A model generated the notes under the pieces. The model ran no database searches. It worked only from the letters and a program-made list of their open reading frames with translations, and was not told where the DNA came from. Made by a program: the position numbers and the translations under genes. DNA of 64,000 bases, taken from the NCBI GenBank assembly GCA_036504335.1, contig DASXVJ010000033.1, positions 97,921 through 161,920 on the forward strand, in the 5' to 3' direction. Origin of the DNA: Thermoanaerobaculia bacterium. GTDB taxonomy: Bacteria > Acidobacteriota > Thermoanaerobaculia > UBA5066. Below, piece by piece: positions 13,129-62,564 of this stretch (position 1 is the first letter of the stretch; the number at the start of each line of letters is the position of its first letter).

Positions 13129-13138
13129 CCGTTAACCC

Positions 13139-30144: not shown

Positions 30145-30146
30145 AT

Positions 30147-33301: not shown

Positions 33302-33352
33302 GAGCACTCGACCCAGGTCGCCCACTCCCTGCCCCCGGATTCCGGGGCGGGA

Positions 33353-50400: not shown

Positions 50401-51782
50401 AGGCGCTGGTTGTCACCGGGCGCGAGCCGCGAGGCCGTGAACGTCCCGTCGGGGCGCGTCCGGAATGCCGTGGTCTCGGCGCCGATCCGCAGCATGCGCC
50501 GGAGGCCCGCGACGCCGCTCTCGCCGCCGCGCGTGAGCGTGCCGCGCGCCGCGGCCACGGGGGCGCCGCTCTCGTCGACGACCTTGCCTGCGAGGGACGC
50601 CCCGAGCGTGAGCGCTATGTCGAGCTTCTTCGCCTCGCCGGGCGCGAGCGCGAGCGCGGCCTGGACCCACGGCACGTGGCGCGCCTCGTCCACCGCGAGA
50701 CGGTACGTCTCGGGCGGCACGCCTTTCAGCGCGTACGTGCCGTCGGGGGCCGCGCGGACGAGGCGCGCGAACGCGTTCCCCTTGAGGAGGAGCTTCGCCC
50801 GCGGTACGGGCTTGCCGGTCTTGTCCTCGACGACCTTGCCGGTGAGCGCCGAGGGCGCGGCCAGCGTGACCGTCAGCGCGCGGCCGTCGGGGAGCGGAAG
50901 CTTGACGTCCGGTCTCGCGGCCCAGCCCGAGTCGCCGGCGTCGACGACGAGAGACCCGCGGCCGTCCGGCGCGTTTGGGATCGAGAAGGCGCCCTCGGCG
51001 TCCGTCAGGGCCCAGCGCGTCGTCGCTTTCACGCCCTCGAAGCGCACGAGCGCGCCCGCGACGGACCGCCTGGCGGCGTCGCGGACGACGCCCGCGATCG
51101 GAAACCCGGCCGCGAGCGCGATCGGCTTCGCGAGACCGCCGGCGCGCAGACCCGACGAGCGTGCGGGCGCGAGACCGTCCTTCATCACCGTGATCCGGTT
51201 GCCCGTGGCGCCCGCCTCCTCGAAACGGAAGACGCCGTCCGCGCCCGTCACGACGATCCGCGCGAGAGTCCGGAGCGACGGGTCACCCGGGCCGCCGCCG
51301 CCCGGCTCGAGGACGACTTCGGCGCCCGCGAGCGGCGCGCCGGAGGCGTCCACGGCGGTGCCGGAGATTTTCTCGGCGCGCGACAGAAGGTGCTCGCCGA
51401 GGTCGTCTGACTCGGATGTGTCGTAGACGTCCTCGAAGAGGATCGGCACGACGCCGGCGCCTTCGGCCTGGACGCGGAAGAGTCTCTCCTTGCCGGCCTC
51501 CGCGGGGACGGAGAGCGCGAAGGAGCCGTCGGCTCCTGTGGTCGCCGCCGCGAAGGGCTTCGGGGCGGCCGAAGCCGGACCGGCCTTCGCCTCGCGCCGC
51601 GCCTCCTCCCCCGGTGTCTCCCACGCGACGGCGGAGACCGTCACGCCTGCGGCGGGGCGGTCGCCCCGGTCCGAGACGAGAAGCCTCCCGCGGATCTCGC
51701 CGGCGGAAGCGGAGAGCGCGAGACTGACGGGAAGCAGGAGGACGAGACGGCCGGGCCGAAGCGCTTTCAGGGGCGTTTTCAC
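47484..51782 (-). CDS. giant secreted protein of ~13-14 tandem CarboxypepD_reg-like domains
   Basis: GTG 51782 is preceded by GGAGG (the track start is 51797). A repeated ~90-100-aa unit of the type G.V.D..G.P...A.V.........T.ADG.F....L..G.Y runs throughout. Signal peptide LLLPVSLALSASAG. Confidence 0.75.
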   Translation of the reverse strand: MKTPLKALRPGRLVLLLPVSLALSASAGEIRGRLLVSDRGDRPAAGVTVSAVAWETPGEEARREAKAGPASAAPKPFAAATTGADGSFALSVPAEAGKERLFRVQAEGAGVVPILFEDVYDTSESDDLGEHLLSRAEKISGTAVDASGAPLAGAEVVLEPGGGGPGDPSLRTLARIVVTGADGVFRFEEAGATGNRITVMKDGLAPARSSGLRAGGLAKPIALAAGFPIAGVVRDAARRSVAGALVRFEGVKATTRWALTDAEGAFSIPNAPDGRGSLVVDAGDSGWAARPDVKLPLPDGRALTVTLAAPSALTGKVVEDKTGKPVPRAKLLLKGNAFARLVRAAPDGTYALKGVPPETYRLAVDEARHVPWVQAALALAPGEAKKLDIALTLGASLAGKVVDESGAPVAAARGTLTRGGESGVAGLRRMLRIGAETTAFRTRPDGTFTASRLAPGDNQRLFVSHAEFERATLAGLSLPAGGTKAGVTVVLKRGATITGFVKDGADQPLADVEVQVDPSVNFRGGAGGVAMNVVRLGGASARPKTKTGADGAFAIKGISVGEYALVLKKPGFATERVDPVKVAEQGVEPVLVTMGPGASISGAVRRRNGEGVEGFLVRAGEAAGGGRGGRGGGGGPGAGLLNAIGADNATGVDGGFFIDGLKAGQAYDLSAFGGGGMGPQKRGVVAPAAGVDIVVSGTGRIAGVALDARTGQPLRNFSVSYEPDRGGGMVIRMVARGAGAQTGIGQKRDFQAEDGAFALEDVPAGTWTVVLDAKGYQTARVASLAVDDGGTKDGVEVRATPGTLLKGRVSDAKTGRPVANAAVSWEPAGAGGGGPGGMFGRGGPLGLDGGDETTTDAEGAFTVEGIAAGRVKVTAKSPDYADGSEVADVKETGGSVEIKLASGGSVGGVVVSGNQPVPGASVSLAGAGEAGFGRILGGGQTTTSDATGRFVFDHLVAGRYSASAGLNGKSSNLSEVVLQSGDTRSDLVLSLSAGSTIQGVVAGLPDGWKSQTTVIATGVESFFATTKVGSDGSFQVTGVPAGPVTLRAQAGDGMGTSRSATKQVTAADDVPLLQTEIVFDVGFTLSGRVTRASQPLANAMVVANLQGGGGRQATARTDESGAYVLQGLQEGSYAVSASADPLTGGGASMVRQTVSLTGDQSLDLTFPTAKVAGLVTDSDTKQPLADVTVGLSAPPAANGSGGVQRMTQTDSTGRFQFTDIAPQAYTLNASKPDYQYDKRAITAADDGSSENLAVELARGQGIEIQARDGLAGVPMRSVSVRVLDGTKAAVYAGTISLDSNGAGEITSLKPGGYSLFVNASGYATVYVASVSVPSRALAVTLTPGGSADISVGPKSFVNGILRGTLRTAAGMPYPYTLFATDGRLAITADASGQTGFRRLTNLAPGSYVLALDGGGGTTFTVGEGGITPVKLP

Positions 51783-51942
51783 GGAGGGAACCTCCACGTC
51801 GTTTTGACCCTATTGGGGCCGGACGCCCGCTGTCGAGCAACGTCGCTGCCAGCGAAACGCGTCGCCCCAGACGCCCCGCGCGCGCATCCTGGTCAGACGC
51901 CGGGGAGCGTCGAAAGGTTACGCACCGTGGCAAGCTGCGCGC

Positions 51943-52968
51943 GTGAAGATGGCGACGACACGGGTTTACGCGCCGCCGGGCGACGTCGTGCGGCTCACTT
52001 CGGTCGAGCCGCTCGTCTTCGAGCTCGCCGACCGGCTCTGGGACCTTGCGCCGGCCGACGCCGAAGGCGGGATTCGGATGGAGATCCTGCATTCGGAGAA
52101 AGAGGGGGATTTCTTAGAAGGCGCGTGGGAGGACGGCGCACCGGCGAGTGGCTCGCCGCGGGGCGACGCCGGTCTCGCTTTCTCATTCGAAGAAGAACAG
52201 CAGTGGGTGCACGAGGGGAACGAATACCGCTGCGACGTCTCCGGCGCGCTCTCTTTGTCGATCGACTTCGCGACGGCCCGCGTCGCCGCGCACCTCGCTC
52301 CCCGTCTGTCCCTCTTACTTTCAAAGAAATCTTCCTCTTCTCCTTCTCTCTCTTCTTCCCTCTTGTCCTTTCTCGCCCGCACGCTCCTCGAGGCGCCCGC
52401 GGCCGTCCTCCTCGGCCGCCGCGGCTGGCAGGTGCTGCACGCGGGCGCCGTCGTCGGGCCGCGCGGGGCCGCCGTCGTGCGCGGCCCTTCCGGCGCGGGC
52501 AAGTCGACGCTCGTCGCCGCCGCGCACCGCGCGGGCCTCGGCGTCCTCGGCGACGAGAGCGTCTTCGTGTCGCGCCTGGATCCCGACGCGCTCGCGGCGA
52601 GCGTGCGGGACCTCGCTCTGCGCGAGGACTCGGCGCGCCTTCTCGGCATTTTCGACGTGACGGAGCCCGCCTTCACGGGCCGCGAGGTGAAGCGGCGCGT
52701 GGACCTCTTCGACGGGAGCGCGCCGCGCGACCGCCGCGCGCGCCGCGCCGCGACGGTTCTGCTCGGACCGCGCGAGCCGGGGCCCGCGCGCCTCGCGCCG
52801 CTCAGGGGTGTTGCGTTTCTCGACGCGTTCCGCGCGGGTGGGATCCCGCAGGAGCGGCCGGGCGACCCCGATGCCGTGGCCCGCGCGTGGGCCGCGGACG
52901 CATGGCACCTCTCGGGTGCGTCCGACCTCGATGGCGCCGTTCGCCTGCTGAAAGACCTCGTCACCTGA
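51943..52968 (+). CDS. HPr kinase C-terminal-domain-like P-loop protein (HprK-related kinase)
   Basis: 341 aa. LHAGAVVGPRGAAVVRGPSGAGKSTLVAAA resembles the HprK/P C-terminal Walker A region (G.SG.GKS). Confidence 0.6.
   Translation: MKMATTRVYAPPGDVVRLTSVEPLVFELADRLWDLAPADAEGGIRMEILHSEKEGDFLEGAWEDGAPASGSPRGDAGLAFSFEEEQQWVHEGNEYRCDVSGALSLSIDFATARVAAHLAPRLSLLLSKKSSSSPSLSSSLLSFLARTLLEAPAAVLLGRRGWQVLHAGAVVGPRGAAVVRGPSGAGKSTLVAAAHRAGLGVLGDESVFVSRLDPDALAASVRDLALREDSARLLGIFDVTEPAFTGREVKRRVDLFDGSAPRDRRARRAATVLLGPREPGPARLAPLRGVAFLDAFRAGGIPQERPGDPDAVARAWAADAWHLSGASDLDGAVRLLKDLVT
52310..52374 (+). repeat. low-GC pyrimidine tract containing the motif CCCTCTTACTTTCAAAGAAATCTTCCTCTTCTC
   Basis: 28 of 33 nt match the reverse complement of 61703-61737. 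It lies inside the HprK-like CDS and encodes LLSKKSSSSPSLSSS. Confidence 0.8.
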
Positions 52969-53026
52969 CGCTTCCGTAACGGGGGTCACGCTCGAGGGGC
53001 GAGACGGCGTCCTAGTCTCTCCGGAC

Positions 53027-54514
53027 ATGCCATCCGGGCCGAAGGTCCTCCTCGCCCACGCCTACTACCTCGCGCACGACGCGAAGCAGATGCGGAAGAT
53101 GAAGCCCTATCCGCCGCTCGCGACGCTTCTCGCGGCGGCCGTCCTCCGGGCGCGCGGATTCGACGTCGTGTTCTTCGACGCGATGCTGGCCGCCGACGAG
53201 CGCGAGTTCGCGCGGGCGCTCGACGCATCGGGCGCGCGGATCGTCGGCATCCTCGAGGACAACTTCAACTTCCTGACGAAGATGTGCACGACGCGCAACC
53301 GCGAGGCGGCTCTTGCGATGACCTCCGCCGCCCGGGCGCGCGGGTGCCGCGTGGCCGTGAACGGCGCCGACGCGACGGACCACGCCGCCGCGTACCTCGC
53401 GGCCGGCGCGGACGCGGTGATCCTCGGCGAGCCCGAGCACGCCATGGCCGAGCTCGCGGCGCTCTGGGCGGCCGACCCTGCGGCGGTTCTCGAACCCGTG
53501 CGCGGCCTCGCGCTCGACGGAGGGACCGGTCTCGACGGTGCTCCGGCCGTGCGCCGCACGCCGACAAGGCCCTTCCTCGAGGACCTCGACGCCTTGCCGC
53601 TGCCGGCGTGGGACCTCGTCGACTCGGAGGCGTACCGGACGGCGTGGGCACGCGCGCACGGACGGCTCTCCTGGAACCTCGTGACGACGCGCGGCTGCCC
53701 GTTCCACTGCAACTGGTGCGCGAAGCCCCTCTGGGGCACGCGCTACGCCCAGCGCAGCCCCGCGAACGTCGCGGACGAGGTCCGCCTGCTCGCGGACACG
53801 GTGCGCCCGGACCACCTCTGGTTCGCGGACGACATCTTCGGTCTCTCGCCGCGCTGGACGGAGTCCTACGCCGAGGCGCTCGCCGAGCGGCGTGTCAGGA
53901 TCCCGTTCACGATGCAGTCGCGCGTCGACCTCATGACGCCCTCCGCCGTCGCGGCGCTCGCCGCCGCGGGCGCCGAAGAGGTCTGGATGGGCGTCGAGTC
54001 CGGTTCACAGCGGATCCTCGACGCGATGGACAAGGGCACGCGCATCGGCCAGGTCCGGACGGCGACGCGCCTCCTCCGGAGTCACGGGATCCGCGTCGCG
54101 TGGTTCCTCCAGCTCGGCTACACGGGCGAGACGTGGGCGGACCTGCTCGCGACGCGCGACCTCGTCCGCAGCGAGCGGCCGGATGATGTCGGCGTCTCCG
54201 TGGCCTACCCGCTGCCCGGGACGCTCTTTCACGAGCGTGTGAAGGAGCAGCTCGGCGCGCGGACGAACTGGAGCGACAGCGACGACCTCGCCATGATGTT
54301 CCGCGGCACGTACACGAGCGCGTTCTACCGGCGCGTGCGCGACGTCCTGCACGAGGAAGTCGCGGCCTTCGCGGCCGGCACGAACGCCGCCGCCGAGACG
54401 CAGCTCGCCTGCGACGAGAGGTGGCGCGAGCTGGACGACACCGAAAGCCTGCATCGCTCCGAACCTCCCGAGGTCGAGGCCTCGGGGCCGCGCCTCCGCG
54501 TCGCGCGCGCGTGA
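53027..54514 (+). CDS. B12-binding domain radical SAM enzyme (1)
   Basis: 495 aa. The N-terminal Rossmann-like B12 region (KVLLAHAYY...PPLATLLAAAVLRARGFDVVFFD) is followed by the TTRGCPFHCNWC CxxxCxxC cluster. Confidence 0.88.
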   Translation: MPSGPKVLLAHAYYLAHDAKQMRKMKPYPPLATLLAAAVLRARGFDVVFFDAMLAADEREFARALDASGARIVGILEDNFNFLTKMCTTRNREAALAMTSAARARGCRVAVNGADATDHAAAYLAAGADAVILGEPEHAMAELAALWAADPAAVLEPVRGLALDGGTGLDGAPAVRRTPTRPFLEDLDALPLPAWDLVDSEAYRTAWARAHGRLSWNLVTTRGCPFHCNWCAKPLWGTRYAQRSPANVADEVRLLADTVRPDHLWFADDIFGLSPRWTESYAEALAERRVRIPFTMQSRVDLMTPSAVAALAAAGAEEVWMGVESGSQRILDAMDKGTRIGQVRTATRLLRSHGIRVAWFLQLGYTGETWADLLATRDLVRSERPDDVGVSVAYPLPGTLFHERVKEQLGARTNWSDSDDLAMMFRGTYTSAFYRRVRDVLHEEVAAFAAGTNAAAETQLACDERWRELDDTESLHRSEPPEVEASGPRLRVARA

Positions 54515-54527
54515 CGCCGGGCGGCCC

Positions 54528-55349
54528 GTGCACCCCCTCCCCGCCGCCGTCCGGGCCTTCGACGCCCTCGCCCCGGGCTTCGACGCCGCCTTCTCCGGAT
54601 GGGCGTCCGTCGCCGCCCAGCGCCGCGCCGTACGCCGCGAGCTCCTCGCCGCGTTTCCGCCGGGCGCCCGCCTGCTCGAGCTCGGAGGCGGCACCGGCGA
54701 GGACGCGCTCTTTCTCGCCTCCGAGGGCCGCGGCGTGCACGTGACCGACGGTGCACCCGCGATGGTCGCGCAAACGCGCGCGAAGGCCCGGGCCGCCGGC
54801 CTCGACGGCCTCGTGACGACCGAGCGCGTGGCGCTCGAGGACCTCGGCGCCTGGGACGCGGCGCGCGGCGGCGCGCCCTTCGACGGCGTCTTCTCGAACT
54901 TCGCGTCGCTCAACTGCGTCACGGACCATGCCTCCGTCGCGCGCGGCCTGGCACGCGTCCTTCCGCCGGGCGCCCGCGCCCTGCTCGTCGTCTTCGGCCC
55001 CGCCTCGCCGTCCGAAGTCGCCGTGCTGCTCCTGCGCGGGCGCTTCCGGGCGGCGTTCCGGCGCTTCTCGCGCGCCCCCGCGCCGGCGCGCGTCGCCGGC
55101 GAGACGTTCACGGTGACGTATCCGGCGCCGCGCGCGTTCGCCGCCGCGTTCTCCCCGTGGTTCGCGCTCCGGAGGACGACGGGCATCGGCGTCTTCGTGC
55201 CGCCGAGCTCCGCCGAGCCGTGGATCTCGCGCGTCCCGCTCGCGCTCGCCGCGGCCGAGGCGCTCGATCGCGTCTTCGCCCGGCCGCTTGCGCTCCTCGC
55301 GGACCACGTTCTCCTCGACTTCGTGCGCACGGACGCGGAGGCCCCGTGA
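54528..55349 (+). CDS. class I SAM-dependent methyltransferase (1)
   Basis: 273 aa. Motif I LLELGGGTGEDALFLA and post-I VHVTDGAPAM. Confidence 0.8.
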   Translation: MHPLPAAVRAFDALAPGFDAAFSGWASVAAQRRAVRRELLAAFPPGARLLELGGGTGEDALFLASEGRGVHVTDGAPAMVAQTRAKARAAGLDGLVTTERVALEDLGAWDAARGGAPFDGVFSNFASLNCVTDHASVARGLARVLPPGARALLVVFGPASPSEVAVLLLRGRFRAAFRRFSRAPAPARVAGETFTVTYPAPRAFAAAFSPWFALRRTTGIGVFVPPSSAEPWISRVPLALAAAEALDRVFARPLALLADHVLLDFVRTDAEAP

Positions 55350-56164
55350 GCGAGCCCGCGCGCCGCCGCTGGGCCCGCGCCTACGCCCGGCTGCGCCGGA
55401 CCGAGGGCCGCGGCGCCGGAGGCACGCGCGAGCTCTTCTCGCTCCCGTGGGTCACGGACGGCCCGCTCGCCGCGCAGTGGCGGATCCGCGCGCGCACCTT
55501 CGACGCCTTCCTCCGGCGCGTCGTGGCTCCCCTCGAGCGCGAGCGGGGGAAGGCGCTCCACGTCCTCGACCTCGGCGCGGGCAACGGCTGGCTCTCGGCG
55601 CGCCTCGCGGAGCGCGGCCATCGCTGCGTCGCGACGGACCTCCGTGTCGACGACGTGGACGGCCTCGCGGCCGCGGCGCCGTTCGCCCGGCGCCTCCCGC
55701 GCATGTTCGGACGCGTGGCGGCCTCGTTTGACGCGCTCCCGCTCCGCCCGCGGCTCTTCGACCTCGTCGTCTTCGACGCGTCGCTGCACCTCGCGGAGGA
55801 TCTCCCGCGCGCCCTCGCCGAGGCCGCGCGTGCCGCGGCGCCCGGCGGCCGCGTCGCGGTCCTCGACTCCCCGTTCTACGCGCACGCCGCCTCGGGCGAC
55901 GCGATGCGCGCCGAGAAGCGCCTCGAGACCGCGGCGCGTTTCGCCGACGTCGCCGAGGATCTCCTCGCGCTCTCGCCCGTCGAGTTCCTCACCGAGGAGC
56001 GGCTCGAGGCGGCCGCCGCGCCCGCGGGTCTCGCCTTCCGGCGCAGGCGCGTCCTCTACACCGCCGCGTACGAGGCGCGCGGCGTCGTCGCACGGCTGAA
56101 GGGCGCGCGCGCCCCGTCGCGCTTCGACCTCTGGGTCTCGGGCGCCCCGGGGGGCGCCGCGTGA
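55346..56164 (+). CDS. class I SAM-dependent methyltransferase (2)
   Basis: GTG 55346 overlaps the upstream stop (GTGA). Motif I VLDLGAGNGWLSARLA, and AAPGGRVAVLD. It lies within track ORF 54599..56164. Confidence 0.7.
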   Translation: MSEPARRRWARAYARLRRTEGRGAGGTRELFSLPWVTDGPLAAQWRIRARTFDAFLRRVVAPLERERGKALHVLDLGAGNGWLSARLAERGHRCVATDLRVDDVDGLAAAAPFARRLPRMFGRVAASFDALPLRPRLFDLVVFDASLHLAEDLPRALAEAARAAAPGGRVAVLDSPFYAHAASGDAMRAEKRLETAARFADVAEDLLALSPVEFLTEERLEAAAAPAGLAFRRRRVLYTAAYEARGVVARLKGARAPSRFDLWVSGAPGGAA

Positions 56165-57537
56165 TCCTCCTCGTGAACACGCGCGCCACGCGGGCGAAGA
56201 ACCGGCGTTTTCCGCTCTCCCTCCTCGCCCTCGCGGCGGCGCTGCCCGAGGACGTCACGTGGCAGATCGTCGACGGCAACCTCGAAGGGTCCGACCCGGC
56301 CGTCGAGGCCGCCGGGATCGTCGCCGCGCGCGCCGGGACCGGCGACCCCGTGCGGCTGATCGGCATGACGGTCATGCCGGGGCCTCAGCTCCTGTCGGCC
56401 GTGCCCGTCGCGCGCGCCCTGAAGGACCGCTTCCCGGACCTTCCGATCGTGTGGGGCGGCTACTTCCCGAGCCTCTACCCGGCGCCGGTCCTGCGCGCAC
56501 CGTACGTGGACTACCTCGTCCGCGGACAGGGCGAGCGCACGCTCGTCGAGCTCCTCGCCGTCCTCGACGGGCGCGTTGACCCCGCGTCCGTCGCGGGCCT
56601 CGGCTGGAAGGACGGCGAAAACGCCGGAGTTCCGCGCGTCAACGCCGAGCGCGCGTGGGAGGGCCCGGACGCGTTCCCTCGCGTGCCGTGGCGGCGCGTC
56701 GACGTTCCGACGTACCTGCGCCCGTCGGCGCTCGGGGCGAAGAGCGGCGTCTATCAGGCGTCGATCGGGTGTCCCTACACGTGCAACTTCTGCGGCGTCA
56801 TCGGCGCGTTCGGCAGCCGCGAGAAGTTCGCGTCGCCCTCGCGCACCGAGGCCGATCTCGCGCACCTCGCCGGGACGCACGGGATGGACTCCGTCCACTT
56901 CTACGACAACAACTTCTTCCTGCGCGAGGAGCACGCCCTCGAGCTCTGCGAGCGGATCGCGCCGCTCGGGCTGAAATGGTGGGCCGAGGCGCGGATCGAC
57001 GCGATGCTGCGTTTCTCCGACGCGACGTGGCGGACGATCCGGCGCGCGGGCCTCACGATGGCGTACTTCGGGGCGGAGTCGGGCTCGAACGAGCGCCTCA
57101 GGAAGATGTCGAAGAACCTGACGATCGAGCAGACGCTCGCGCTCGCCGCGAAGACCAGAGAGCACGGGATCCTGCCGGAGTTCTCGTTCGTCTTCGGCGA
57201 CCCGGACGACCCCGAGGACGACGTCCAGACGAATCTCGCGTTCATCGAGAAGCTCGCCGCGGTCAACCCGGACCTCAAACTCATCACGTACTTCTACACG
57301 CCGACGCCGCAGCGCCGCGGGACGTACGGGAACGTCGACCCGCTGTCGACGACGCCCGCGACGCTCGAGGAGTGGACGACGCCCGAGTGGCTCGGCTGGA
57401 TGACGCACGAGGACCCGAAGGTCCCGTGGCTGCCGCCGCGGCTCAAGGGGCGCGTCGAGGACTTCGCCCGCCGGCTGAAGGGCGGCCTCGCGCCCGCGGA
57501 CTCACAGGCCTACGGCCACCTGAGGGAGGCCTCGTGA
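56161..57537 (+). CDS. B12-binding domain radical SAM enzyme (2)
   Basis: 458 aa with a GTGA overlap. B12-like N-terminal region (ILLVNTRA...LIGMTVMPGPQL) and the SIGCPYTCNFC cluster. Confidence 0.85.
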   Translation: MILLVNTRATRAKNRRFPLSLLALAAALPEDVTWQIVDGNLEGSDPAVEAAGIVAARAGTGDPVRLIGMTVMPGPQLLSAVPVARALKDRFPDLPIVWGGYFPSLYPAPVLRAPYVDYLVRGQGERTLVELLAVLDGRVDPASVAGLGWKDGENAGVPRVNAERAWEGPDAFPRVPWRRVDVPTYLRPSALGAKSGVYQASIGCPYTCNFCGVIGAFGSREKFASPSRTEADLAHLAGTHGMDSVHFYDNNFFLREEHALELCERIAPLGLKWWAEARIDAMLRFSDATWRTIRRAGLTMAYFGAESGSNERLRKMSKNLTIEQTLALAAKTREHGILPEFSFVFGDPDDPEDDVQTNLAFIEKLAAVNPDLKLITYFYTPTPQRRGTYGNVDPLSTTPATLEEWTTPEWLGWMTHEDPKVPWLPPRLKGRVEDFARRLKGGLAPADSQAYGHLREAS

Positions 57538-58211
57538 GCGCGGCGCTCCGGACGCGCGAGGCGTACCGCCTCTGGTCGGACACGTACGACCAGGAGAACC
57601 CGTTGACCGTCCTCGACGAGGCGGCCGTGCGGATGTTCACGCCCGAGCTCGAGGGGCTCGACCTCCTCGATGCGGCCTGCGGCACCGGACGGCGCCTCGT
57701 CTTCGGGGAGAACGCGCCGCGCTCGGCGGCCGGGGTCGATCTCGTCTTCGAGATGCTCGCCCGGGGCCGGCGCGTGCCGGGCCGCCCTTCCGCCACCTCG
57801 GCGGCGGACGTGCGGTCTCTGCCGTTTCCCGCCGCGCGGTTCGACGTCGCGTGGTGCCGGCTCGCGGCCGGGCACCTTCCCGCGCTCGCGCCGCTCTATG
57901 CGGAGCTCGCGCGCGTCCTCCGGCCCGGCGGGTGCGCGATCGTCACGGATTTTCACCCCGAGGCGATCCGCCGCGGGCACGCGCGGGTCTTCCGCGACGC
58001 CGCGGGAACGGCCCACACCGTCGAGCACGTCGTCCACGAGCCGGGCGACCACGAGACGGCTGCGCGCGCCGCCGGGCTCTCGTTCGATTCCGGCGGCTGG
58101 CTCAGCGTCGGCTCCGAGGTGCGCGCCTTCTACGAGCGGGCCGGAAAGCTCGACCGCTTCGGACGCGACGCGGGCATGCCGCTGCTTCTCGCGCTGAGGT
58201 TTTCGCGGTGA
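57534..58211 (+). CDS. class I SAM-dependent methyltransferase (3)
   Basis: GTG 57534 with a GTGA overlap. Motif I LLDAACGTGRRL, and VLRPGGCAIVTDFHP. 225 aa. Confidence 0.75.
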   Translation: MSAALRTREAYRLWSDTYDQENPLTVLDEAAVRMFTPELEGLDLLDAACGTGRRLVFGENAPRSAAGVDLVFEMLARGRRVPGRPSATSAADVRSLPFPAARFDVAWCRLAAGHLPALAPLYAELARVLRPGGCAIVTDFHPEAIRRGHARVFRDAAGTAHTVEHVVHEPGDHETAARAAGLSFDSGGWLSVGSEVRAFYERAGKLDRFGRDAGMPLLLALRFSR

Positions 58212-59287
58212 GGCTGCGCCTCGTCACGCACGCCGGCTCTCTCGACGTCGAGGACGGCCGCGTGGCCGCCGGCCGGGGCCCGGCGGACGTCTCCGTGGAC
58301 CTCGACGGCGCGACGCTTCGGCCCGGGCTCGTGAACGCGCACGATCACCTCCACCGAAACCACCTCCCGCGTCTCGGAGAGCCGCCCTACCCCGACGCCG
58401 CAGCGTGGGGCCGCGACCTCCACGAGCGGTTCACGGAGGATCTCGAGCGGCGCCATGCGCTCCCGCGCCGCGAGGCGCTCCTGTTCGGCGCGCTCAAGAA
58501 CGTCCTCGGCGGCGCGACGACGGCGGTCCACCACGACGCGTGGGAGGACGACTTCGACCGGGACTTTCCGCTCCGCGTGCCGCGCATCCCCACCGTGCAG
58601 TCCGTCCGGGAGGCGCCCGGGGAGAAGCCTCCCGGCCCGTGGGCGATGCACCTCGCCGAAGGGACGAGCCGCGAGGCGTGCGAGGAGATCGCGGACGCGG
58701 ACGCGCGCGGACTTCTCGGGCGGGCCCTCGCGGCGGTCCACCTCGTCGCGACGGACGCCGACGGCCTCGCACGCCTGACGCGCGCGGGGTGCGCCGCCGT
58801 GTGGTGCCCGACGTCCAACGCGTTCCTGTACGGCGCGACGTCCTCGCGGGCGCTCTTCGGCGCGGGCCTCGAGGTGCTGCTCGGGAGCGATGCGCTCGTG
58901 AGCGGCGCCGGCACGCTCCTCGACGAGCTCGCCGCGGCCCGGGCCACGGGTCTCGTATCGGACGCGCGGCTCGCCGCCGCCGTCTCGACGGTGGCGGCGC
59001 GGCGCCTCGGTCTGCCGGCGCCGTCGCTCGAACCGGGCGCCCCGGCGGACCTCGTGGCGCTCCGCGTGCCTCTCCTCTCGGCGCGGCCGCGCGACGTCGC
59101 GCTCGTCCTCGTCGCCGGCCGGCCCGTCCTCGCGGACGAGGAGTTCGCCGCGGTCTTCGACCACGCGGGCGTCGCGCACGAGCCGCTCATCGTCGGCGGC
59201 GTCGCCAAGCGCGTCGCCGCGCCGCTCGGCTCCGTCGCGCACGCGGTTTTTGCCGCCGCTCCCGAGTGCCGGAGGATCGTGGCGTGA
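58208..59287 (+). CDS. amidohydrolase-superfamily metal-dependent hydrolase
   Basis: GTG 58208 with a GTGA overlap. PGLVNAHDHLH carries the HxH motif. Later elements are HLAEG and ...GSDA.... 359 aa. Confidence 0.7.
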   Translation: MRLRLVTHAGSLDVEDGRVAAGRGPADVSVDLDGATLRPGLVNAHDHLHRNHLPRLGEPPYPDAAAWGRDLHERFTEDLERRHALPRREALLFGALKNVLGGATTAVHHDAWEDDFDRDFPLRVPRIPTVQSVREAPGEKPPGPWAMHLAEGTSREACEEIADADARGLLGRALAAVHLVATDADGLARLTRAGCAAVWCPTSNAFLYGATSSRALFGAGLEVLLGSDALVSGAGTLLDELAAARATGLVSDARLAAAVSTVAARRLGLPAPSLEPGAPADLVALRVPLLSARPRDVALVLVAGRPVLADEEFAAVFDHAGVAHEPLIVGGVAKRVAAPLGSVAHAVFAAAPECRRIVA

Positions 59288-59571
59288 CGGCTCCCGGCGC
59301 GCCCGCCCTCGTCCTCCAGGAGGGCGAGTTCCGCCATCAGGAGACGTTTGGGCCCGGCACCGTGAACCGGGGCGCCGTTCTCCTCGAATGCACGTGGGAC
59401 GGCGGCGAGTTCGAGTCGGGAGTCATGCTCGGCGGCGTCTTTCGATCCGGCACGTTCCGCGGCGGCGTCTTCTGGGGCGGCGTCTGGCTTTCGGGCTCGT
59501 GGGTCGCGGGCGATTGGGAACACGGGTTCGGCCCCGACGGGGCCTACCGGCCCCGCACCGACCATCCGTGA
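59284..59571 (+). CDS. 95-aa protein with about nine G-x-(F/W/M)-x-(G/S) pentapeptide-type repeats
   Basis: GTG 59284 with GTGA overlaps at both ends. The repeat region reads CTWDG GEFES GVMLG GVFRS GTFRG GVFWG GVWLS GSWVA GDWEH G. Confidence 0.5.
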   Translation: MTAPGAPALVLQEGEFRHQETFGPGTVNRGAVLLECTWDGGEFESGVMLGGVFRSGTFRGGVFWGGVWLSGSWVAGDWEHGFGPDGAYRPRTDHP

Positions 59572-60554
59572 GGGTGATCCTCGCGTCCGCGCACCGGTAC
59601 GCGGACCTCGCACGCCTCTGGCATCGGTTCGCCCTTCGCGATCTCGTGCCGGCCCTGCGCGCCGCGGGGGCGGGGGTGGACGTCGTCCTCTTCCGCGACG
59701 CGGCGCCCGACGCGTTCGACCCGCGCGACTTTCCTGGCGCGACGCTCCTTGCTCCAGGCCCCGGGGCGCGCGACTTCCTCGAGTTCTACGACGCGGCGCT
59801 CCGTCGGGAGGGCGACGTCCTCTTCCTGCTCGACGCCGACCTGTTCGTCCTCGACGGCGCGTGGGCCGCGTCGTTCCTCTCCCGGTTTGCGGACCCTTCG
59901 GTTGCCGCGGTCTCGCTGCTGCGACGCACCGAGCAGCCCGGCGTGTACGCGCTCCTCGCGCGGACCGCCGCGTACCGCGAGCTCCCCGCCCCGGTCTTCG
60001 CGCCGTCGTACGAGGCTCCCGGGGCGCCGGGCGCCGTGAACCGGCAGCCCGGCGACCGCGCGGCGCTGGCCCTTCGCTCCGGCGGCCTGACGATCCTCGA
60101 CGTCCCGGCGTCCGAGGCCGAGGGCCGCGTCTCCGACTTCCACGGCACGACCGTGATCCGGGCTTCGCGCGAGGTCTTCGGCGCCTCGCTCGGCCCGCGG
60201 TTCGACGCGCTCCTCTCGGAGAAGCCCTACTTCGCGATGGGCGCGTACGACAACCTGCTCCTCGGAGCGCTCCATCGCACGGTGTTCGGAGCGCCGTACG
60301 CTCCGGACGCGGACGGCGTGCACCTCGGCGGGAGCGCGACGGAAGAGACCCTGCGATCCGCGCTCGCCCGCGTCTCCGACCGGACGGCGCTCGTGCGCTT
60401 CCTCGCGTACGCGGACCGTTCGAACCGGGCCGCGGCGGGGCTTTTCGCGAGGGAAGGCCTGCCGTTCGTGCCGCCCCGCCTCCTTCCGCGCCCGCGCGGG
60501 TGGGCGGTGCGGGCCTGGGGGCTCGCACGCCGCGCCGCGGGACGGCCCGCGTGA
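59568..60554 (+). CDS. hypothetical DxD-motif protein (GT-A-like?), paralog 1
   Basis: GTG 59568. 328 aa. Contains ADLARLWH, ARDFLEFYDAALRR, LFLLDADLFVLD and ADPSVAAVS. Confidence 0.5.
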   Translation: MRVILASAHRYADLARLWHRFALRDLVPALRAAGAGVDVVLFRDAAPDAFDPRDFPGATLLAPGPGARDFLEFYDAALRREGDVLFLLDADLFVLDGAWAASFLSRFADPSVAAVSLLRRTEQPGVYALLARTAAYRELPAPVFAPSYEAPGAPGAVNRQPGDRAALALRSGGLTILDVPASEAEGRVSDFHGTTVIRASREVFGASLGPRFDALLSEKPYFAMGAYDNLLLGALHRTVFGAPYAPDADGVHLGGSATEETLRSALARVSDRTALVRFLAYADRSNRAAAGLFAREGLPFVPPRLLPRPRGWAVRAWGLARRAAGRPA

Positions 60555-61432
60555 CCGCGCCGGCGCTCACCGTCTTCACGGCGACCGTCTACGGCGACGT
60601 CGCGCGCCTCTGGCACGCCTGCGTCGCCCGTGCGCTCGGCGACGCGGCCCGGATCGAGATCTTCGACGACTCGCCCGCCCAGGACCTCGACCCGGCGTTC
60701 TTCCCCGCGGCGGAGATCCTCAGGCGGTCGCCGGCGCGGCGCGACTTCCACGAGGCCTACAACGACGCCGTCCGCCGGTGTGAAACGCCGCTGCTCGCGT
60801 TCGTCGACAGCGACGTCTTCTGGCTGGATCCCGGCGCCGGGAAGCGCGCAGCCGCGGAGCTGGCGGACCCGCGCGTCGCCGCGGTCTCCTTCGTCTCGCG
60901 GACGCGCACGTCGAGCCACGGCACGTTCGCCGTCGCCGTGAAGCCGGCCCTCTATCGCGAGGCGCTCGCCGCACTCCCGGGCGGGTTCTTCCCGGCCGTC
61001 GAGGGCGTCCGGCCCGACGTCCCGCGCGCCGGGTGGATCGAGCACGACACGGGCGACCTCATGACGCGCGCGGTCCTCGCCGCGGGCCACGAGGTGCGCC
61101 TCCTGAACCTCGAACGGACCGGAGAGTTCGCGCGCTTCGACGGCATCACGCTGTCGCGCCGGGCCGCGCTGTGGATGGGAGAGGCGGCGCTCGAGCGGAT
61201 TTCGGCGGAGAACGACTACTTCTGGCACGGCTGGATCGGCAACGCGACCCTGAAGTCGCTGCACGACGCTTCCTTCCCGGACGGCCCGCGCTACGACTTT
61301 CCGTTTTCGCGCGGGGCGGCGCTCGTCCGTGCGGTCTCGCCGAGCCCGCGCCGCACCCGCAACCGGCTCGCCTACGTTCTGCGCCTCCGCGGGCAGGCGG
61401 CAGCCGTCCGTGCGCTCATCCGGAGACCCTAG
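60551..61432 (+). CDS. hypothetical DxD-motif protein (GT-A-like?), paralog 2
   Basis: GTG 60551. 293 aa. Contains GDVARLWH, RRDFHEAYNDAVRR, LLAFVDSDVFWLD and ADPRVAAVS, collinear with paralog 1. Confidence 0.5.
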   Translation: MTAPALTVFTATVYGDVARLWHACVARALGDAARIEIFDDSPAQDLDPAFFPAAEILRRSPARRDFHEAYNDAVRRCETPLLAFVDSDVFWLDPGAGKRAAAELADPRVAAVSFVSRTRTSSHGTFAVAVKPALYREALAALPGGFFPAVEGVRPDVPRAGWIEHDTGDLMTRAVLAAGHEVRLLNLERTGEFARFDGITLSRRAALWMGEAALERISAENDYFWHGWIGNATLKSLHDASFPDGPRYDFPFSRGAALVRAVSPSPRRTRNRLAYVLRLRGQAAAVRALIRRP

Positions 61433-62564
61433 AGAACAACCCGCGGAGCGCCAGCCTCACCCGACGCCCGAAGACGCGCACGTACGCGGCGACGAGAGCG
61501 ATCCCCGAGGAGTCCGGCGCCGCGTTCGCCTTCACCTCCCCGAGTGTCGGGAAGAGGGTGCGGAGGAGAAATCGCGAGCGCGGCACCGGCCCGTCCACCA
61601 GCGACAGGAGCGTCCGCGTCCAGCCGCGCGCGGGGCGCGTGTAGCGGAGGGCCGGCAGCGCCGCCGCGCGGCGGCGCAGATCCGGAGGGACGCGGGAAGA
61701 AAGAGAAGAGAGAAAGATTTCTTTGAAGGTAAGAGGGAAGAGTCGTTCGATCGCGGACGCGGCGAAGTACAGAGGCGCCGTTCCTTCCCCTCTCACACTC
61801 GAAGAAATCTCCGGCGCGAGAGCGCCGGTCTTCCGGTCTCCATCCCTCGCGATCGCGAGAAGCCGGAAGTCGTACGCCTGGATCCCGCGGATGCCGTTTC
61901 CCGCGAAGTCCTCCGCGGCGTGGAAGAGGAGATGCGTGAGGAGCGCGCCTCCCGCCGCGACATTCACGCGCGTCCCGCCGAGGTCGCGCGCCTCGGCCTC
62001 TCCGCGCAGCACCGCGCTCGCGTCGTAGACGCGTCCGAGGACGGGCAGGCGGAACGACGTGTGGATCTCGACGCGGATCGGGTTGTCCGGGTCCTCGGCA
62101 GCGGGGCGGACGACACGCTCGTCCGGGCGCGCGAAGACGCGGTGGCGCGGCGTGTCGAGCAGCGCGCGCCAGCCGGCGCCACCGAGCGCCTCCGTCGCGC
62201 GGGCGAGATCGCGGGCGTCCTTCAGGAGGAGGTCGAGGTCTCCCATCGGGCGGAGCGCGGGTTCCGGGTAGTGGAAGGACGCGAGGACCGCGCCCTTGAG
62301 CGCGACGACCTCGACGCCCGCGGCGCGGAGCGCCAGAACGACCGCCCCGAGCGTTTCCCGCAAGCGCCTCGCCCGGGCACGGGCGAAGGGGATTTCTTCG
62401 AGTAGATAAGCAGAAAGGGGCGCGGGAAGCGTCGAGGCGGCCTCGAGCCCAGCGACCAGCGTCGTGAGGCCCTGGGTGGAGATGGCGAAGGCGGCGATTT
62501 CTGCCGCCGCGTCCTCCTCCTCTCCTCTTCCACTCGAAGAAGTTCTTCTCTTCTCTCTCTCCAT
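61416..62564 (-). CDS. uncharacterised nucleotidyltransferase family protein (NTP_transf_5-like)
   Basis: LRAAGVEVVALKGAVLASFHYPEPALRPMGDLDLLL...IRVEIHTSF fits the family pattern. ATG 62564 is chosen as the start. The upstream part of track ORF 61416..63596 overlaps a convincing plus-strand gene. Confidence 0.6.
   Translation of the reverse strand: MEREKRRTSSSGRGEEEDAAAEIAAFAISTQGLTTLVAGLEAASTLPAPLSAYLLEEIPFARARARRLRETLGAVVLALRAAGVEVVALKGAVLASFHYPEPALRPMGDLDLLLKDARDLARATEALGGAGWRALLDTPRHRVFARPDERVVRPAAEDPDNPIRVEIHTSFRLPVLGRVYDASAVLRGEAEARDLGGTRVNVAAGGALLTHLLFHAAEDFAGNGIRGIQAYDFRLLAIARDGDRKTGALAPEISSSVRGEGTAPLYFAASAIERLFPLTFKEIFLSSLSSRVPPDLRRRAAALPALRYTRPARGWTRTLLSLVDGPVPRSRFLLRTLFPTLGEVKANAAPDSSGIALVAAYVRVFGRRVRLALRGLFSRVSG
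61694..61742 (-). repeat. low-GC purine tract; reverse complement carries CCCTCTTACCTTCAAAGAAATCTTTCTCTCTTCTC
   Basis: This is the inverted partner of 52310-52342. It lies inside the NTase CDS, where it encodes PLTFKEIFLSSLSS, a different reading frame from the partner. Confidence 0.8.

Follow-up and report, generated by a model that had tools for sequence, protein, structure and literature searches.

The locus at positions 51943-62564 of the window, by which is meant the whole stretch of 64,000 nucleotides that was analysed, raises two connected questions: whether its radical SAM enzymes, methyltransferases, kinase-like and nucleotidyltransferase-like genes form a single system, and on what kind of substrate they would act. 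The original prediction described one locus of eleven genes, a combination not recognised as a known pathway, whose substrate could be a peptide, a lipid or a glycan. The eleven genes are indeed present as open reading frames in that order, with a strong and uniformly high coding signal (GC3 0.83-0.95):

g1, 51943..52968, plus strand, 341 aa: P-loop protein of the HprK/PEPCK-like kinase type, Walker A GPSGAGKST
g2, 53027..54514, plus strand, 495 aa: B12-binding radical SAM enzyme, CPFHCNWC
g3, 54528..55349, plus strand, 273 aa: class I SAM methyltransferase
g4, 55346..56164, plus strand, 272 aa: class I SAM methyltransferase, its start overlapping the g3 stop by 4 nt
g5, 56161..57537, plus strand, 458 aa: second B12-binding radical SAM enzyme, CPYTCNFC
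g6, 57534..58211, plus strand, 225 aa: class I SAM methyltransferase
g7, 58208..59287, plus strand, 359 aa: metal-dependent amidohydrolase, nucleoside/nucleobase-deaminase subgroup
g8, 59284..59571, plus strand, 95 aa: predicted beta-solenoid protein
g9, 59568..60554, plus strand, 328 aa: glycosyltransferase-like protein of GT-A fold (GT2-like), DAD motif, helical domain at the C terminus
g10, 60551..61432, plus strand, 293 aa: paralogue of g9 with a DSD motif
g11, 61416..62564, minus strand, 382 aa: NTP_transf_5 nucleotidyltransferase-fold protein

The motifs quoted in the prediction are all found in the translations (CPFHCNWC, CPYTCNFC, GPSGAGKST, NAHDHLH for the HxH, LLDADLF, FVDSDVF and RPMGDLDLL). 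The co-directional set begins with g1, and start/stop overlaps of 4 nt couple consecutive genes from g3 through g10, including g7/g8, where the overlap spans the boundary between the two blocks described below; g10 and g11 are convergent and overlap by 17 nt. An upstream GTG at 62609 would give g11 397 aa, as it is called on the source contig (L001). The slot that the locus occupies, between two syntenic flanking genes, is presence/absence-polymorphic. One of these flanking genes encodes a giant CarboxypepD_reg protein and the other a secreted protein of 1100 aa without annotation; both are tied to the locus by synteny alone. In the scanned part of the window there are also genes such as ftsA/ftsZ and those for an RNase D-like exonuclease and a TonB-dependent receptor.

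The occurrence of these genes elsewhere shows that the locus consists of two separable, uncharacterised modules joined in one operon. The first, block M (g1, g2-g7 and g11), is a conserved cassette found in other bacteria without g8-g10: the order g2-g7 is kept at 45-66% identity in five loci (L075, L077, L078, L079 and L080), with g3 orthologues (50-61% identity) at the same position, a weakly related HprK-like gene divergently upstream in all five, and, in L075, L078 and L079, an NTP_transf_5 relative of g11 placed convergently after the amidohydrolase, while none of the five holds a homologue of g8, g9 or g10 at E<0.01. The third methyltransferase is always followed by g7, and in L078 g7 is fused to a methyltransferase. 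Since L075, L078 and L079 share a metagenome of origin and may belong to related organisms, these loci represent about three independent contexts of block M. Co-occurrence in related genomes, on which the prediction had staked its claim, is also found, as the complete set is kept in the same or a rearranged order, at 50-93% identity, in at least eight MAG species of Thermoanaerobaculia/Acidobacteriota (L008, L009, L011, L012, L013, L015, L004 and L042), with g1 homologues (50-83% identity) heading the same block in L008, L009, L011, L012, L004 and L042. Thus the genes do belong together, but not as one eleven-gene unit. In the reduced loci L014, L017 and L018, g6 is the sole methylation gene retained, and g5 has 4353 homologues at E<=1e-20, one of which, 65% identical, is named Longimicrobium sp.

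For most of block M, the Pfam/NCBIfam matches agree with the enzymes proposed: g2 (Radical_SAM, E 2e-18; B12-binding, E 2.3e-10), g5 (B12-binding, E 2.2e-11; Radical_SAM, E 3.3e-10), g3 (Methyltransf_25, E 7e-10), g4 (Methyltransf_11, E 1.9e-13), g6 (Methyltransf_11, E 2.7e-15; over these three the Methyltransf_11/25 matches range from E 1e-7 to 3e-15), g7 (Amidohydro_1/3; Amidohydro_1, E 3.7e-9) and g11 (NTP_transf_5, PF14907, E 3.4e-28). In g1, proposed to be of the HPr-kinase type, the Walker A motif stands, but the family assignment is weak, with 30 bits (E 2.5e-7) against TIGR04352 HprK_rel_A, whose cut-off is 200, and Pfam matches of E 0.14 (Hpr_kinase_C) and E 0.05 (PEPCK_ATP). The HprK-related kinases A/B (TIGR04352/TIGR04355) and ScmC (TIGR04249, SynChlorMet) are the best NCBIfam matches of g1 and of the kinases of L075, L077 and L080, yet these score 19-33 bits against cut-offs of 125-200 and therefore are not members of those families; HprK-related kinase A/B cassettes are reportedly associated with PqqD-like and nucleotidyltransferase genes, whereas here a PqqD-family gene is absent.

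The two radical SAM enzymes share an N-terminal B12-binding domain and a CxxxCxxC radical SAM core with MgmA (9CCB), AprD4, TokK, CysS and TsrM, their nearest solved relatives (E 1e-18 to 1e-5 over partial lengths); the best are, for g2, MgmA, an MCR glutamine C-methylase (E 1.9e-18), and AprD4 (E 4.5e-16), and, for g5, AprD4 (E 5.7e-12). As the substrates of these relatives span from protein (MgmA) to aminoglycoside (AprD4), no substrate is deduced from them for g2 and g5. The amidohydrolase keeps the metal and catalytic motifs (HxH; HxxE, as HLAE; the GxD aspartate, as GSD) of the MTA/SAH deaminase MtaD/PA3170 and of the aminofutalosine deaminase DR_0824, but it is about 80-100 residues shorter, and its C-terminal half alone aligns, at about 44 bits. 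The solved structures nearest to it are 4DYK/4GBD, 2IMR and 3LNP (E 1.5e-10 to 5e-7); among these, 4DYK, 4GBD and 2IMR are adenosine-analogue deaminases, 4GBD (PA3170) being a methylthioadenosine deaminase and 2IMR an aminofutalosine deaminase. No gene of the locus, g2 included, reaches the cut-off of an NCBIfam equivalog, matches to lipid-enzyme models fall 5- to 10-fold below theirs, and the close homologues all bear the name "hypothetical" or generic radical-SAM labels; in agreement with the prediction, the locus matches no characterised pathway, both blocks being, on these comparisons, without characterised members.

The second module, block G (g8, g9 and g10), is built around a pair, g8 and a GT2-like transferase, almost confined to the Acidobacteriota, where nearly all of the 67 genome loci with g8 are found. 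Among the g8 loci flanked by at least 7 kb on either side, a g9/g10 relative lies directly after g8 in 41 of 42, and of these well-flanked loci there are radical SAM genes in only 19, methyltransferases in 21, an amidohydrolase in 8, NTP_transf_5 in 7 and a kinase in 6, the pair often being alone. What had been described as a 95-aa repeat protein does contain repeats, some nine pentapeptide units of the form [GS]-G-x-[FW]-x followed by a conserved Y-R-P-R...P tail at the end, and is in addition confidently predicted by AlphaFold2 to be a small, all-beta, pentapeptide-repeat-like solenoid (pLDDT 94.7), with 29 invariant columns spread over its whole length. It resembles the pentapeptide-repeat proteins (MfpA, Qnr, the SV2 luminal domain) in its predicted solenoid and in a five-residue periodicity that combines an inward-facing aromatic with a small residue, and its profile search leads to Pentapeptide_4/LD_SV2 multi-repeat proteins and to natural fusions with GT-A and NTP_transf_5 domains; its architecture is also analogous to the left-handed beta-helix carried by nucleotide-sugar enzymes such as GlmU and ADP-glucose pyrophosphorylase. 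It differs from them, however, in a Gly-rich repeat ([GS]GxFx, not A(D/N)LXX), in having only about two turns, and in showing neither a significant fold match in the PDB (the weak best ones are LbH and pentapeptide-repeat proteins) nor signs of DNA mimicry or acetyltransferase activity. Neither g8 nor g9 is matched by a model of Pfam or NCBIfam.

The two DxD proteins are paralogous, as predicted (32% identity), and can now be given a class: on the predicted structure, they are GT-A-fold glycosyltransferase-like enzymes. The AlphaFold2 model of g9 (pLDDT 94.4) has a GT-A/GT2 fold, with WrtF, ArnC, PcManGT, BcsA and GtrB as top Foldseek matches (E 4e-6 to 1e-4, probability 1.0) and the glycocin S-glycosyltransferase ThuS at rank 47; a profile match to 6YV7 (GT2) covers the DxD region, and D44, D69, D89 and D96 are invariant, D91 and D190 nearly so. 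The predicted fold, the DxD and the conserved upstream Asp set are like those of the GT2 enzymes (in BcsA, of its catalytic domain), from which g9 differs in a similarity below the Pfam threshold, a distinct C-terminal helical domain, the lack of a transmembrane segment and an obligate small beta-solenoid partner; we know of no characterised GT2 enzyme with such a partner. The matches of g10 to Glycos_transf_2 (E 0.002, 18.5 bits) and MftF (E 4e-6) are below cut-off.

The relation between these proteins is also written in their fusions. GT-A domains are fused to g8 in both domain orders, the g8 subclades track the subtype of the partner (g9 or g10), and the g10 subtype is the one met in fusions to g8 and to NTP_transf_5 (P0164, P0167, P0163, P0171, P0173 and P0184); the triple fusion is found on at least six contigs, several of them independent, and in a long-read MAG the 805-aa NTP_transf_5-g8-g10-like protein is a single ORF (L032, 8774-11191). 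By its position NTP_transf_5 is part of block M, while its fusions tie it to block G, and it therefore links the two. The best reading of g8 is that of a glycosyltransferase partner and not of a RiPP precursor, although L006/L027, with g8, two radical SAM and two methyltransferase genes and no GT-A gene within about 9 kb, fits poorly with g8 as solely a glycosyltransferase subunit.

The closest known association of g1 and g11 is the lasso tailoring pair, an HPr-kinase homologue (the kinase of paeninodin) and a nucleotidyltransferase of NTP_transf_5 type (PsmN, of pseudomycoidin), in which the same two families are together; in pseudomycoidin, a hydroxyl is phosphorylated and one or more hexoses are then attached to the phosphate (PMC8498205), and this chemistry is a plausible template for g1 and g11. 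The present locus differs in that g1 scores only about 30 bits against HprK-type models, in that both genes lie within a methylation cassette adjoining polysaccharide genes, and in the absence of a lasso cyclase, B1/B2 protease, RRE and precursor peptide, and, as had been predicted, the locus genes and the scanned immediate flanks include neither a lasso cyclase nor an RRE/PqqD, and neither a leader protease nor an exporter. An alternative, which we judge unlikely, is a RiPP-like modification of a protein or peptide in which g8 would be the substrate or primer: the radical SAM enzymes and methyltransferases would methylate it, g1 would phosphorylate it, and g11, g9 and g10 would add sugars, whether by glycogenin-like self-priming on the conserved Tyr88 or by phospho-glycosylation of the pseudomycoidin type. 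In its favor, g8 is common to very different enzyme sets (GT-A only; radical SAM and methyltransferases only, as in L006; NTP_transf_5 and GT-A; all of them), peptide substrates are documented for HprK-like kinases and NTP_transf_5, the best solved relative of g2 methylates a protein, the Y-R-P-R tail is strongly conserved, and ThuS is among the fold matches of g9. However, block M keeps its order in loci without a g8 homologue, so its enzymes need no g8 substrate, and, judged from this distribution of sequences, g8 can be set aside as a RiPP substrate candidate for them; moreover, it is conserved end to end as a compact predicted solenoid (pLDDT 95) with no leader-plus-variable-core layout, the usual RiPP partners are missing, as just described, Tyr88 is Phe in the fusion protein P0173, and stable fusion to an enzyme, in both orders, would be more usual for a subunit than for a substrate.

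It is similarly improbable that the locus is a small-molecule pathway in which block M would act on a metabolite of nucleoside, cofactor or lipid type, for example methylated inosyl/adenosyl-hopanoid-like nucleoside lipids. The amidohydrolase would then serve as deaminase of an adenosine moiety, N/O-methylation would fall to the methyltransferases and C-methylation to the B12-radical SAM enzymes, and the GT-A enzymes would add a sugar. The nearest solved relatives of g7, as adenosine-analogue deaminases, would suit this, the B12-radical SAM relatives include, at similarly weak scores, enzymes that methylate or cyclise lipids (HpnJ, HpnR, the ladderane radical SAM enzyme), and a cytoplasmic or membrane metabolite requires no carrier or exporter; methylated adenosyl- and inosyl-hopanes do exist, in soils and some cultures, without known tailoring genes (PMC12583986). 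Against it are the absence of hopanoid (shc/hpn), isoprenoid and nucleoside-biosynthesis genes among the scanned genes of the window, the distance of the lipid-enzyme matches from their cut-offs, and the neighbors of block M, which are polysaccharide and not lipid genes. That eleven unrelated genes with no common function were juxtaposed by chance is very improbable and already disfavored: the blocks are separable, each being found alone, and the slot is polymorphic, but the translational-coupling overlaps continue across the block boundary, at least eight species keep the full set, NTP_transf_5 ties the blocks by position and fusion, and in other lineages (L029, L033, L035, L046 and L072) g8-g9-g10 is followed immediately by radical SAM and methyltransferase genes.

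Among the three substrates left open by the prediction, the evidence leans to the glycan, by the genes beside block M, and it is on gene neighborhood that we tentatively read the locus, at somewhat less than an even chance, as a glycan biosynthesis and decoration operon. Wherever inspected outside its own lineage, block M has capsule/EPS-type genes beside it: Poly_export (Wza), GNVR (Wzc), an ABC transporter and Caps_assemb_Wzi in L075, L078 and L079; two double GT4 proteins, Wzy_C, Polysacc_synt (Wzx) and Bac_transf in L080; and two GT4 and one GT2 in L077, while the g8 loci of Acidobacteriota carry GT4, GT9, GT2, PIG-L deacetylase and sulfotransferase genes. Mycobacterial methylmannose/methylglucose polysaccharides are made with a glycosyltransferase, O-methyltransferases and a hydrolase, and the Campylobacter capsule O-methyl-phosphoramidate pathway has a kinase, a nucleotidyltransferase, a hydrolase and methyltransferases. 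Such methyl-decoration pathways resemble the locus in their overall logic, either in combining glycosyltransferases, several SAM methyltransferases and a hydrolase or in having a kinase and a nucleotidyltransferase that activate a capsule substituent; the protein families differ, however, and neither is known to use B12-radical SAM enzymes, HprK-like kinases, NTP_transf_5 or a beta-solenoid partner. Against the glycan it counts that, close to the locus, the window has neither a flippase nor an exporter, and neither an initiating transferase nor a sugar-nucleotide gene; that MgmA, the nearest solved relative of g2, modifies a protein; and that, where the substrates of HprK-like kinases are known, they are proteins or peptides.

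If the locus does serve a glycan, its GT-A enzymes would transfer sugar units, with g8 as a structural or specificity subunit, and g1 and g11 would either activate a unit, by phosphorylation and then nucleotidylation, or introduce a phospho-linked substitution, as in the phospho-glycosylating pair of pseudomycoidin. The two B12-radical SAM enzymes would add C-methyl groups or perform related radical chemistry, such as a deoxygenation of the AprD4 type; the three methyltransferases would carry out O- or N-methylation; and the amidohydrolase could deaminate or deacylate an intermediate, or clear the inhibitory adenosine-type by-products (5'-deoxyadenosine, SAH) of the five enzymes that consume SAM. 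As product one would expect an oligo- or polysaccharide, or a glycoconjugate, decorated with methyl groups, with the acceptor and the export route encoded outside the locus. In summary, the neighborhoods of these genes in other bacteria suggest that what is built or decorated is a methylated sugar polymer and not a lasso-type peptide.

The window has a G+C content of about 72-73%, and between 51.9 and 62.6 kb it holds eleven ORFs whose third-position G+C (GC3) of 0.83-0.95 is that of real genes, which bears out the eleven genes of the original prediction; every motif quoted there was likewise found in the translations. The locus and its flanking genes are as follows:

51943-62564, the locus under study, comprising g1 to g11:
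g1, plus strand, candidate HprK-like kinase
g2, plus strand, B12-binding radical SAM enzyme (B12-rSAM)
g3 and g4, plus strand, class I methyltransferases
g5, plus strand, second B12-rSAM
g6, plus strand, class I methyltransferase
g7, plus strand, amidohydrolase
g8, plus strand, 95-aa protein of predicted solenoid fold
g9 and g10, plus strand, DxD paralogues of predicted GT-A type
g11, minus strand, NTP_transf_5 protein
47484-51797, minus strand, giant CarboxypepD_reg protein (1437 aa, 12 CarboxypepD_reg domains)
from about 62650, plus strand, secreted protein of ~1100 aa, unannotated

Ten of the eleven ORFs lie on the plus strand; g11 is convergent, and its last 17 nt coincide with those of g10. 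From g3 to g10 neighbouring genes share 4 nt, start codon with stop codon, and therefore form a translationally coupled operon; the only gaps between plus-strand genes, of 58 and 13 nt, lie ahead of g2 and g3. The g8-g10 genes (block G) are inserted between the amidohydrolase and the NTP_transf_5 gene of the other eight (block M, g1-g7 and g11), and they are translationally coupled to g7. The proposal of a single eleven-gene locus holds insofar as the full set is kept in at least eight species, although it is made up of two separable conserved modules. A promoter and terminator scan at 73% G+C was uninformative, Rfam gave no RNA families in the window, and outside the locus the window carries housekeeping genes, among them ftsA, ftsZ, mfd and one for an RNase D-like exonuclease.

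Both flanking genes frame the same slot in many Thermoanaerobaculia (conserved synteny), and what occupies it varies: the full eleven genes (the window, the homologous loci L008 and L012, and others), a reduced methyltransferase-(amidohydrolase)-g8-g9 set (L014, L017, L018), or a truncated g8 remnant only (L073). The locus is thus accessory, in a fixed chromosomal slot. Elsewhere in the window, G+C drops to 0.61-0.66 (vs about 0.72) over 8 kb that separate a SurA-like gene from mfd (28700-36900); this region encodes large secreted proteins and a membrane protein alongside LuxR-type HTH regulators, and has the look of an island acquired horizontally. An anti-phage defence reading was set aside on the PADLOC search, which gave no defence-system match (g2 and g5, generic rSAM similarity of ~20 bits; g1 and g7-g11, nothing).

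The Pfam scans agree with the predicted domains in g2 to g7: B12-binding and Radical_SAM in g2 and g5, class I methyltransferase in g3, g4 and g6, and amidohydrolase in g7. Both g2 and g5 score above the gathering thresholds for PF02310 and PF04055 and, with an N-terminal B12-binding domain and a CxxxCxxC core (CPFHCNWC and CPYTCNFC), they would belong by sequence to the class B (cobalamin-binding) radical SAM enzymes. They are not, however, members of any named family of these: the best NCBIfam B12-rSAM scores are 98.6 and 108.5 bits (BchE) vs a cut-off of 481, equivalog scores at best reach ~100 bits vs cut-offs of 360-750, and BchE, HpnJ, HpnR, MgmA-type, PhpK, ApyD, AprD4 and TsrM were all rejected as far below their NCBIfam cut-offs. 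The nearest solved relative of g2 is MgmA, a protein methylase. The amidohydrolase g7 keeps the HxH (NAHDHLH), HxxE (HLAE) and GxD (GSD) motifs; its NCBIfam score is 44 bits vs cut-offs of 360-540 for the MTA/SAH/5'-deoxyadenosine-type deaminases (COG0402 group), and its nearest solved structures are 4DYK, 4GBD and 2IMR, which we take to be adenosine-analogue deaminases. In L078, another locus with block M, the amidohydrolase and a class I methyltransferase domain are joined in one protein (12057-13826, 589 aa), with a Flavin_Reduct protein encoded directly downstream; this fusion fits either role considered for g7, the processing of an intermediate or the clearance of by-products.

The two genes that bracket the cassette are of unequal standing. 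The g11 product matches NTP_transf_5 (PF14907) at 99.3 bits (E 3.4e-28; gathering score 31.2 bits), as had been proposed, and carries RPMGDLDLL, matching the GDxDLL motif of the family. As for the predicted HprK-like kinase, g1 has a Walker A motif, but the similarity to HprK-related kinase A (TIGR04352) amounts to 30.1 bits, over residues 164-235 only, vs a curated cut-off of 200 bits; Hpr_kinase_C gives an E of 0.14 and the likeness to PEPCK_ATP is marginal. A kinase may be suspected, and this label is the weakest gene assignment in the locus. The one such pair that has been studied, a kinase with an NTP_transf_5 protein, phospho-glycosylates a lasso peptide (PMC8498205). Nothing relevant turned up in literature searches on HprK-related kinase, on PF14907 and on Thermoanaerobaculia radical SAM.

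A 54-nt imperfect inverted repeat, 78% complementary, has one copy inside g1 (52309-52362) and the other inside g11 (61685-61738), and therefore brackets g2-g10. Its G+C of 0.40-0.46 is unusually low vs about 0.73, and the reading frames in the two genes differ. The core motif TTCRAAGAAATC occurs in 7 copies in the window vs 0.18 expected, 5 of the 7 in g1 or g11, and further repeat or motif positions are 52108, 52320, 61716, 61798 and 62391. The long version is found in this strain only; g1 homologues keep the Ser/Leu-rich linker that the repeat encodes in g1, though its length varies. The repeat may serve regulation or recombination, or it may have arisen by coincidence from low-complexity coding.

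Outside the window, block M leads an existence of its own. The g5 family has 4353 proteins at E<=1e-20, many of them 57-68% identical (one annotated Longimicrobium sp.), and with more than 4000 homologues the cassette is therefore not rare. Six g5 homologues were viewed in their genomic context (L075-L080), and in five of these (L075, L077, L078, L079, L080) the order rSAM-MT-MT-rSAM-MT-amidohydrolase (MT, methyltransferase) recurs, at 45-66% identity to g2-g7. All five cassettes have a divergently oriented HprK-like gene upstream, whose product matches HprK_rel_A/B, ScmC and hpr-ser models at about 20-33 bits, and three (L075, L078, L079) have a convergent NTP_transf_5 gene downstream, while homologues of g8, g9 and g10 at E<0.01 are found in none of the five. 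The sixth, L076 (Longimicrobium), has a g5-g6 pair adjoining more genes for rSAM enzymes and methyltransferases; the gene order there differs, and an amidohydrolase is absent.

The neighbours of these five cassettes are those of polysaccharide synthesis and export:

Genes neighbouring block M in the loci with the conserved cassette order
L075, L078, L079: Poly_export (Wza), GNVR (Wzc), ABC transporter, Caps_assemb_Wzi
L080: two double-GT4 proteins, Wzy_C, Polysacc_synt (Wzx), Bac_transf
L077: two GT4, one canonical GT2

Since L075, L078 and L079 share a single metagenome, the independent contexts number about three. The exopolysaccharide (EPS) genes beside the orthologous block M in L075 and L078-L080 support the idea that it works with glycans, and the Acidobacteriota loci that contain g8 also carry GT4, GT9, GT2, PIG-L deacetylase and sulfotransferase genes, as well as an HemK/MTS-type methyltransferase and a flavin-reductase-like protein. 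A conserved gene of ~300 aa adjoins NTP_transf_5 in L075 (14636-15610), L078 (16111-17052) and L079 (14745-15605); it has no Pfam or NCBIfam match, was rejected as a remote g9/g10 relative (hhalign probability 2%), and its VDLxAGDG / GxGDG motif suggests an FkbM/class-I-like methyltransferase.

Block G is of another character. The g8 protein consists of about nine [GS]-G-x-[FW]-x units, with 29 invariant columns across its full length, and is modelled by AlphaFold2 as an all-beta solenoid (pLDDT 94.7). Pfam (even at E 10), NCBIfam, PDB sequence profiles and Foldseek gave no significant match to a known family; the best, weak Foldseek matches are left-handed beta-helix and pentapeptide-repeat proteins (best of the latter, E about 1-3), and an exhaustive profile search reaches large multi-repeat proteins bearing Pentapeptide_4/LD_SV2 domains. 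Its homologues are scarce: 40 clusters, none of them named, in a set of 5.8 billion proteins. A scan of one genome per species gave 67 g8 loci, nearly all of them in Acidobacteriota MAGs (Thermoanaerobaculia, Holophagales, Bryobacterales, Terriglobia), with one in a Planctomycetota bin and one on an Acidithiobacillales-labelled contig, which we suspect to be mis-binned. The closest genome locus is L008, with 93% identity over the g8 product. Several Thermoanaerobaculia have two copies (L004, the same as L005, at 2763-6448; L009, L011, L013, L015, L016, L037), one before g9 in a long operon and a second in a separate NTP_transf_5-g8'-g10 module; in the window the second copy was lost or never present.

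For g9, sequence searches gave no Pfam or NCBIfam match and only a marginal PDB profile match to 6YV7, whereas the fold search placed it: the AlphaFold2 model (pLDDT 94.4) has a GT-A fold with a helical C-terminal domain, which Foldseek places with the GT2 enzymes WrtF, ArnC, PcManGT, BcsA and GtrB (E 4e-6 to 1e-4, best probability 1.0). As its DAD motif and several further Asp residues are invariant, the modelled protein has both the fold and the DxD of GT2 / GT-A glycosyltransferases, and this activity is predicted for it. In g10 the match to Glycos_transf_2 (18.5 bits) is below the Pfam gathering score of 23.3 and that to MftF is also sub-threshold; a GT-A fold is proposed because of its 32% identity to g9. 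Plasmid-borne g9 homologues with curated annotation were not found.

The pairing was followed by tblastn with all eleven window proteins, in the 42 loci having at least 7 kb on each side; the counts are tblastn-based because a GC3-based gene caller mis-called strands in some loci. Almost everywhere g8 is followed directly downstream by a gene of the g9/g10 family:

Companions of g8 in the 42 loci (tblastn)
DxD gene (g9/g10 family): 41/42
Class I methyltransferase: 21/42
B12-rSAM: 19/42
Amidohydrolase: 8/42
NTP_transf_5: 7/42
HprK-like kinase: 6/42

In Bryobacterales and Terriglobia, g8 and g9 occur as an isolated pair; the genes around them vary, resemble housekeeping genes as judged from sequence, and gave no hint of function. 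L006/L027 is the exception to the pairing, which the glycan model leaves unexplained: it is the only locus (6151-11417) in which g8 lies between two B12-rSAM and two methyltransferase genes and has no GT-A gene within about 9 kb.

The partners are also found joined in one polypeptide:

Natural fusions involving g8
g8 then g10-like: P0167, P0184
g8 then g9-like: P0175, low-G+C lineage
g10-like then g8: P0163, P0171, P0173
NTP_transf_5 then g8 then g10-like: P0164, 805 aa

The triple fusion (proteins P0164, P0310-P0316) is present on at least 6 contigs from three data sources (JGI, ENA, NCBI), as one uninterrupted ORF in a long-read MAG locus (L032, 8774-11191) and also in L038; some other apparent g8 fusions were discarded as frameshift artefacts. 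In a neighbour-joining tree of 81 g8 copies the clades track the partner subtype, g9 or g10, and also the presence of an upstream NTP_transf_5. From all this we infer that g8 would be a dedicated partner, as subunit or domain, of the GT-A transferase, and that NTP_transf_5 would work physically with the pair; the fusions predict a physical complex of g8 and its partners.

On the basis of gene neighbourhood, it may tentatively be held, at somewhat less than even confidence, that the operon makes or decorates a glycan. In such a scheme, g9 and g10, together with g8, would transfer sugars; g1 and g11 would activate a unit, by phosphorylation and then nucleotidyl transfer, or alternatively would install a phospho-linked sugar; the two B12-rSAM enzymes and three methyltransferases would methylate the product; and g7 would process an intermediate or clear 5'-deoxyadenosine and SAH. 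Against this stand the kinship of g2 with a protein methylase, the presence in L006 of g8, rSAMs and methyltransferases with no GT-A gene, and the lack of export and initiation genes at the window locus, where initiating transferase, flippase or ABC transporter, polymerase and Wza/Wzc are absent from the locus and its immediate flanks; a complete Wzx/Wzy- or ABC-dependent capsule or EPS cluster was rejected on that account. That g8 is instead a protein substrate or primer would account for its being the common denominator of varied enzyme sets, but block M is found without g8, and g8 is evenly conserved, is predicted to fold and occurs in fusions with enzymes, which makes this unlikely. For these reasons a RiPP with g8 as precursor was rejected as the main model; the operon leaves no intergenic room, its sole small ORF is g8, conserved over its full length, and no precursor gene with a leader and variable core was found in it. 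Nor is the locus a lasso or other RiPP cluster, because the defining genes were tested and are absent: in agreement with the original prediction, lasso cyclase, leader protease and PqqD/RRE did not appear in Pfam/NCBIfam scans of the eleven proteins and the flanking genes.

A more specific version makes g8 a protein primer or carrier, neither passive subunit nor classical RiPP precursor: the GT-A partner, with NTP_transf_5 and the HprK-like kinase, would begin a phospho-linked glycan on it, possibly at its conserved Tyr-Arg-Pro-Arg tail, and block M would then methyl-decorate the chain; we give this a slim chance. A small-molecule, nucleoside or lipid product would suit the deaminase-like g7 and the weak similarity to lipid rSAMs, and is improbable, no neighbour gene supporting it; the nucleoside-hopanoid idea survives as no more than an improbable rival, since the scanned genes of the window include none for hopanoids. 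Chance juxtaposition is scarcely credible, given a translational coupling that spans the block boundary, conservation in at least eight species, and an NTP_transf_5 that bridges both blocks. The remaining probability belongs to functions outside all these models.

The likeness of the locus to known systems is one of fold with the GT2 glycosyltransferases, of protein family with the kinase/NTP_transf_5 tailoring pair, and of logic with the methyl-decorated polysaccharide pathways. The expectation that no described pathway would be matched was borne out, as none of the ten locus proteins scanned reached the cut-off of an NCBIfam equivalog model; membership in named B12-rSAM, HprK-related or amidohydrolase equivalog families is excluded because the scores fall far below these cut-offs. 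What is new is (i) the cassette of conserved order rSAM-MT-MT-rSAM-MT-amidohydrolase, with an HprK-like kinase on one side and NTP_transf_5 on the other; (ii) a GT-A enzyme with a Gly-rich pentapeptide-repeat mini-solenoid as a partner that we call obligate; and (iii) the union of both in one operon.

Block G defines two new families, the mini-solenoid and its GT-A partner, as a pair called obligate in soil Acidobacteriota, whose envelope and exopolysaccharide chemistry matters ecologically and is, to our knowledge, for the most part unexplored. The lineages are uncultured, and the present value of the locus is that of a well-delimited target for heterologous expression. If g8 were a primer, this would be a bacterial glycogenin-like, protein-primed methylated glycan, or a new class of heavily modified mini-protein. 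The pairing of HprK-like kinase and NTP_transf_5 outside lasso clusters is, as far as we know, widespread but unexplained; if block M tailors glycans, this pairing would acquire a cellular role outside lasso-peptide clusters, and cobalamin-dependent rSAM chemistry (C-methylation or deoxygenation) would enter the decoration of polysaccharides and capsules.
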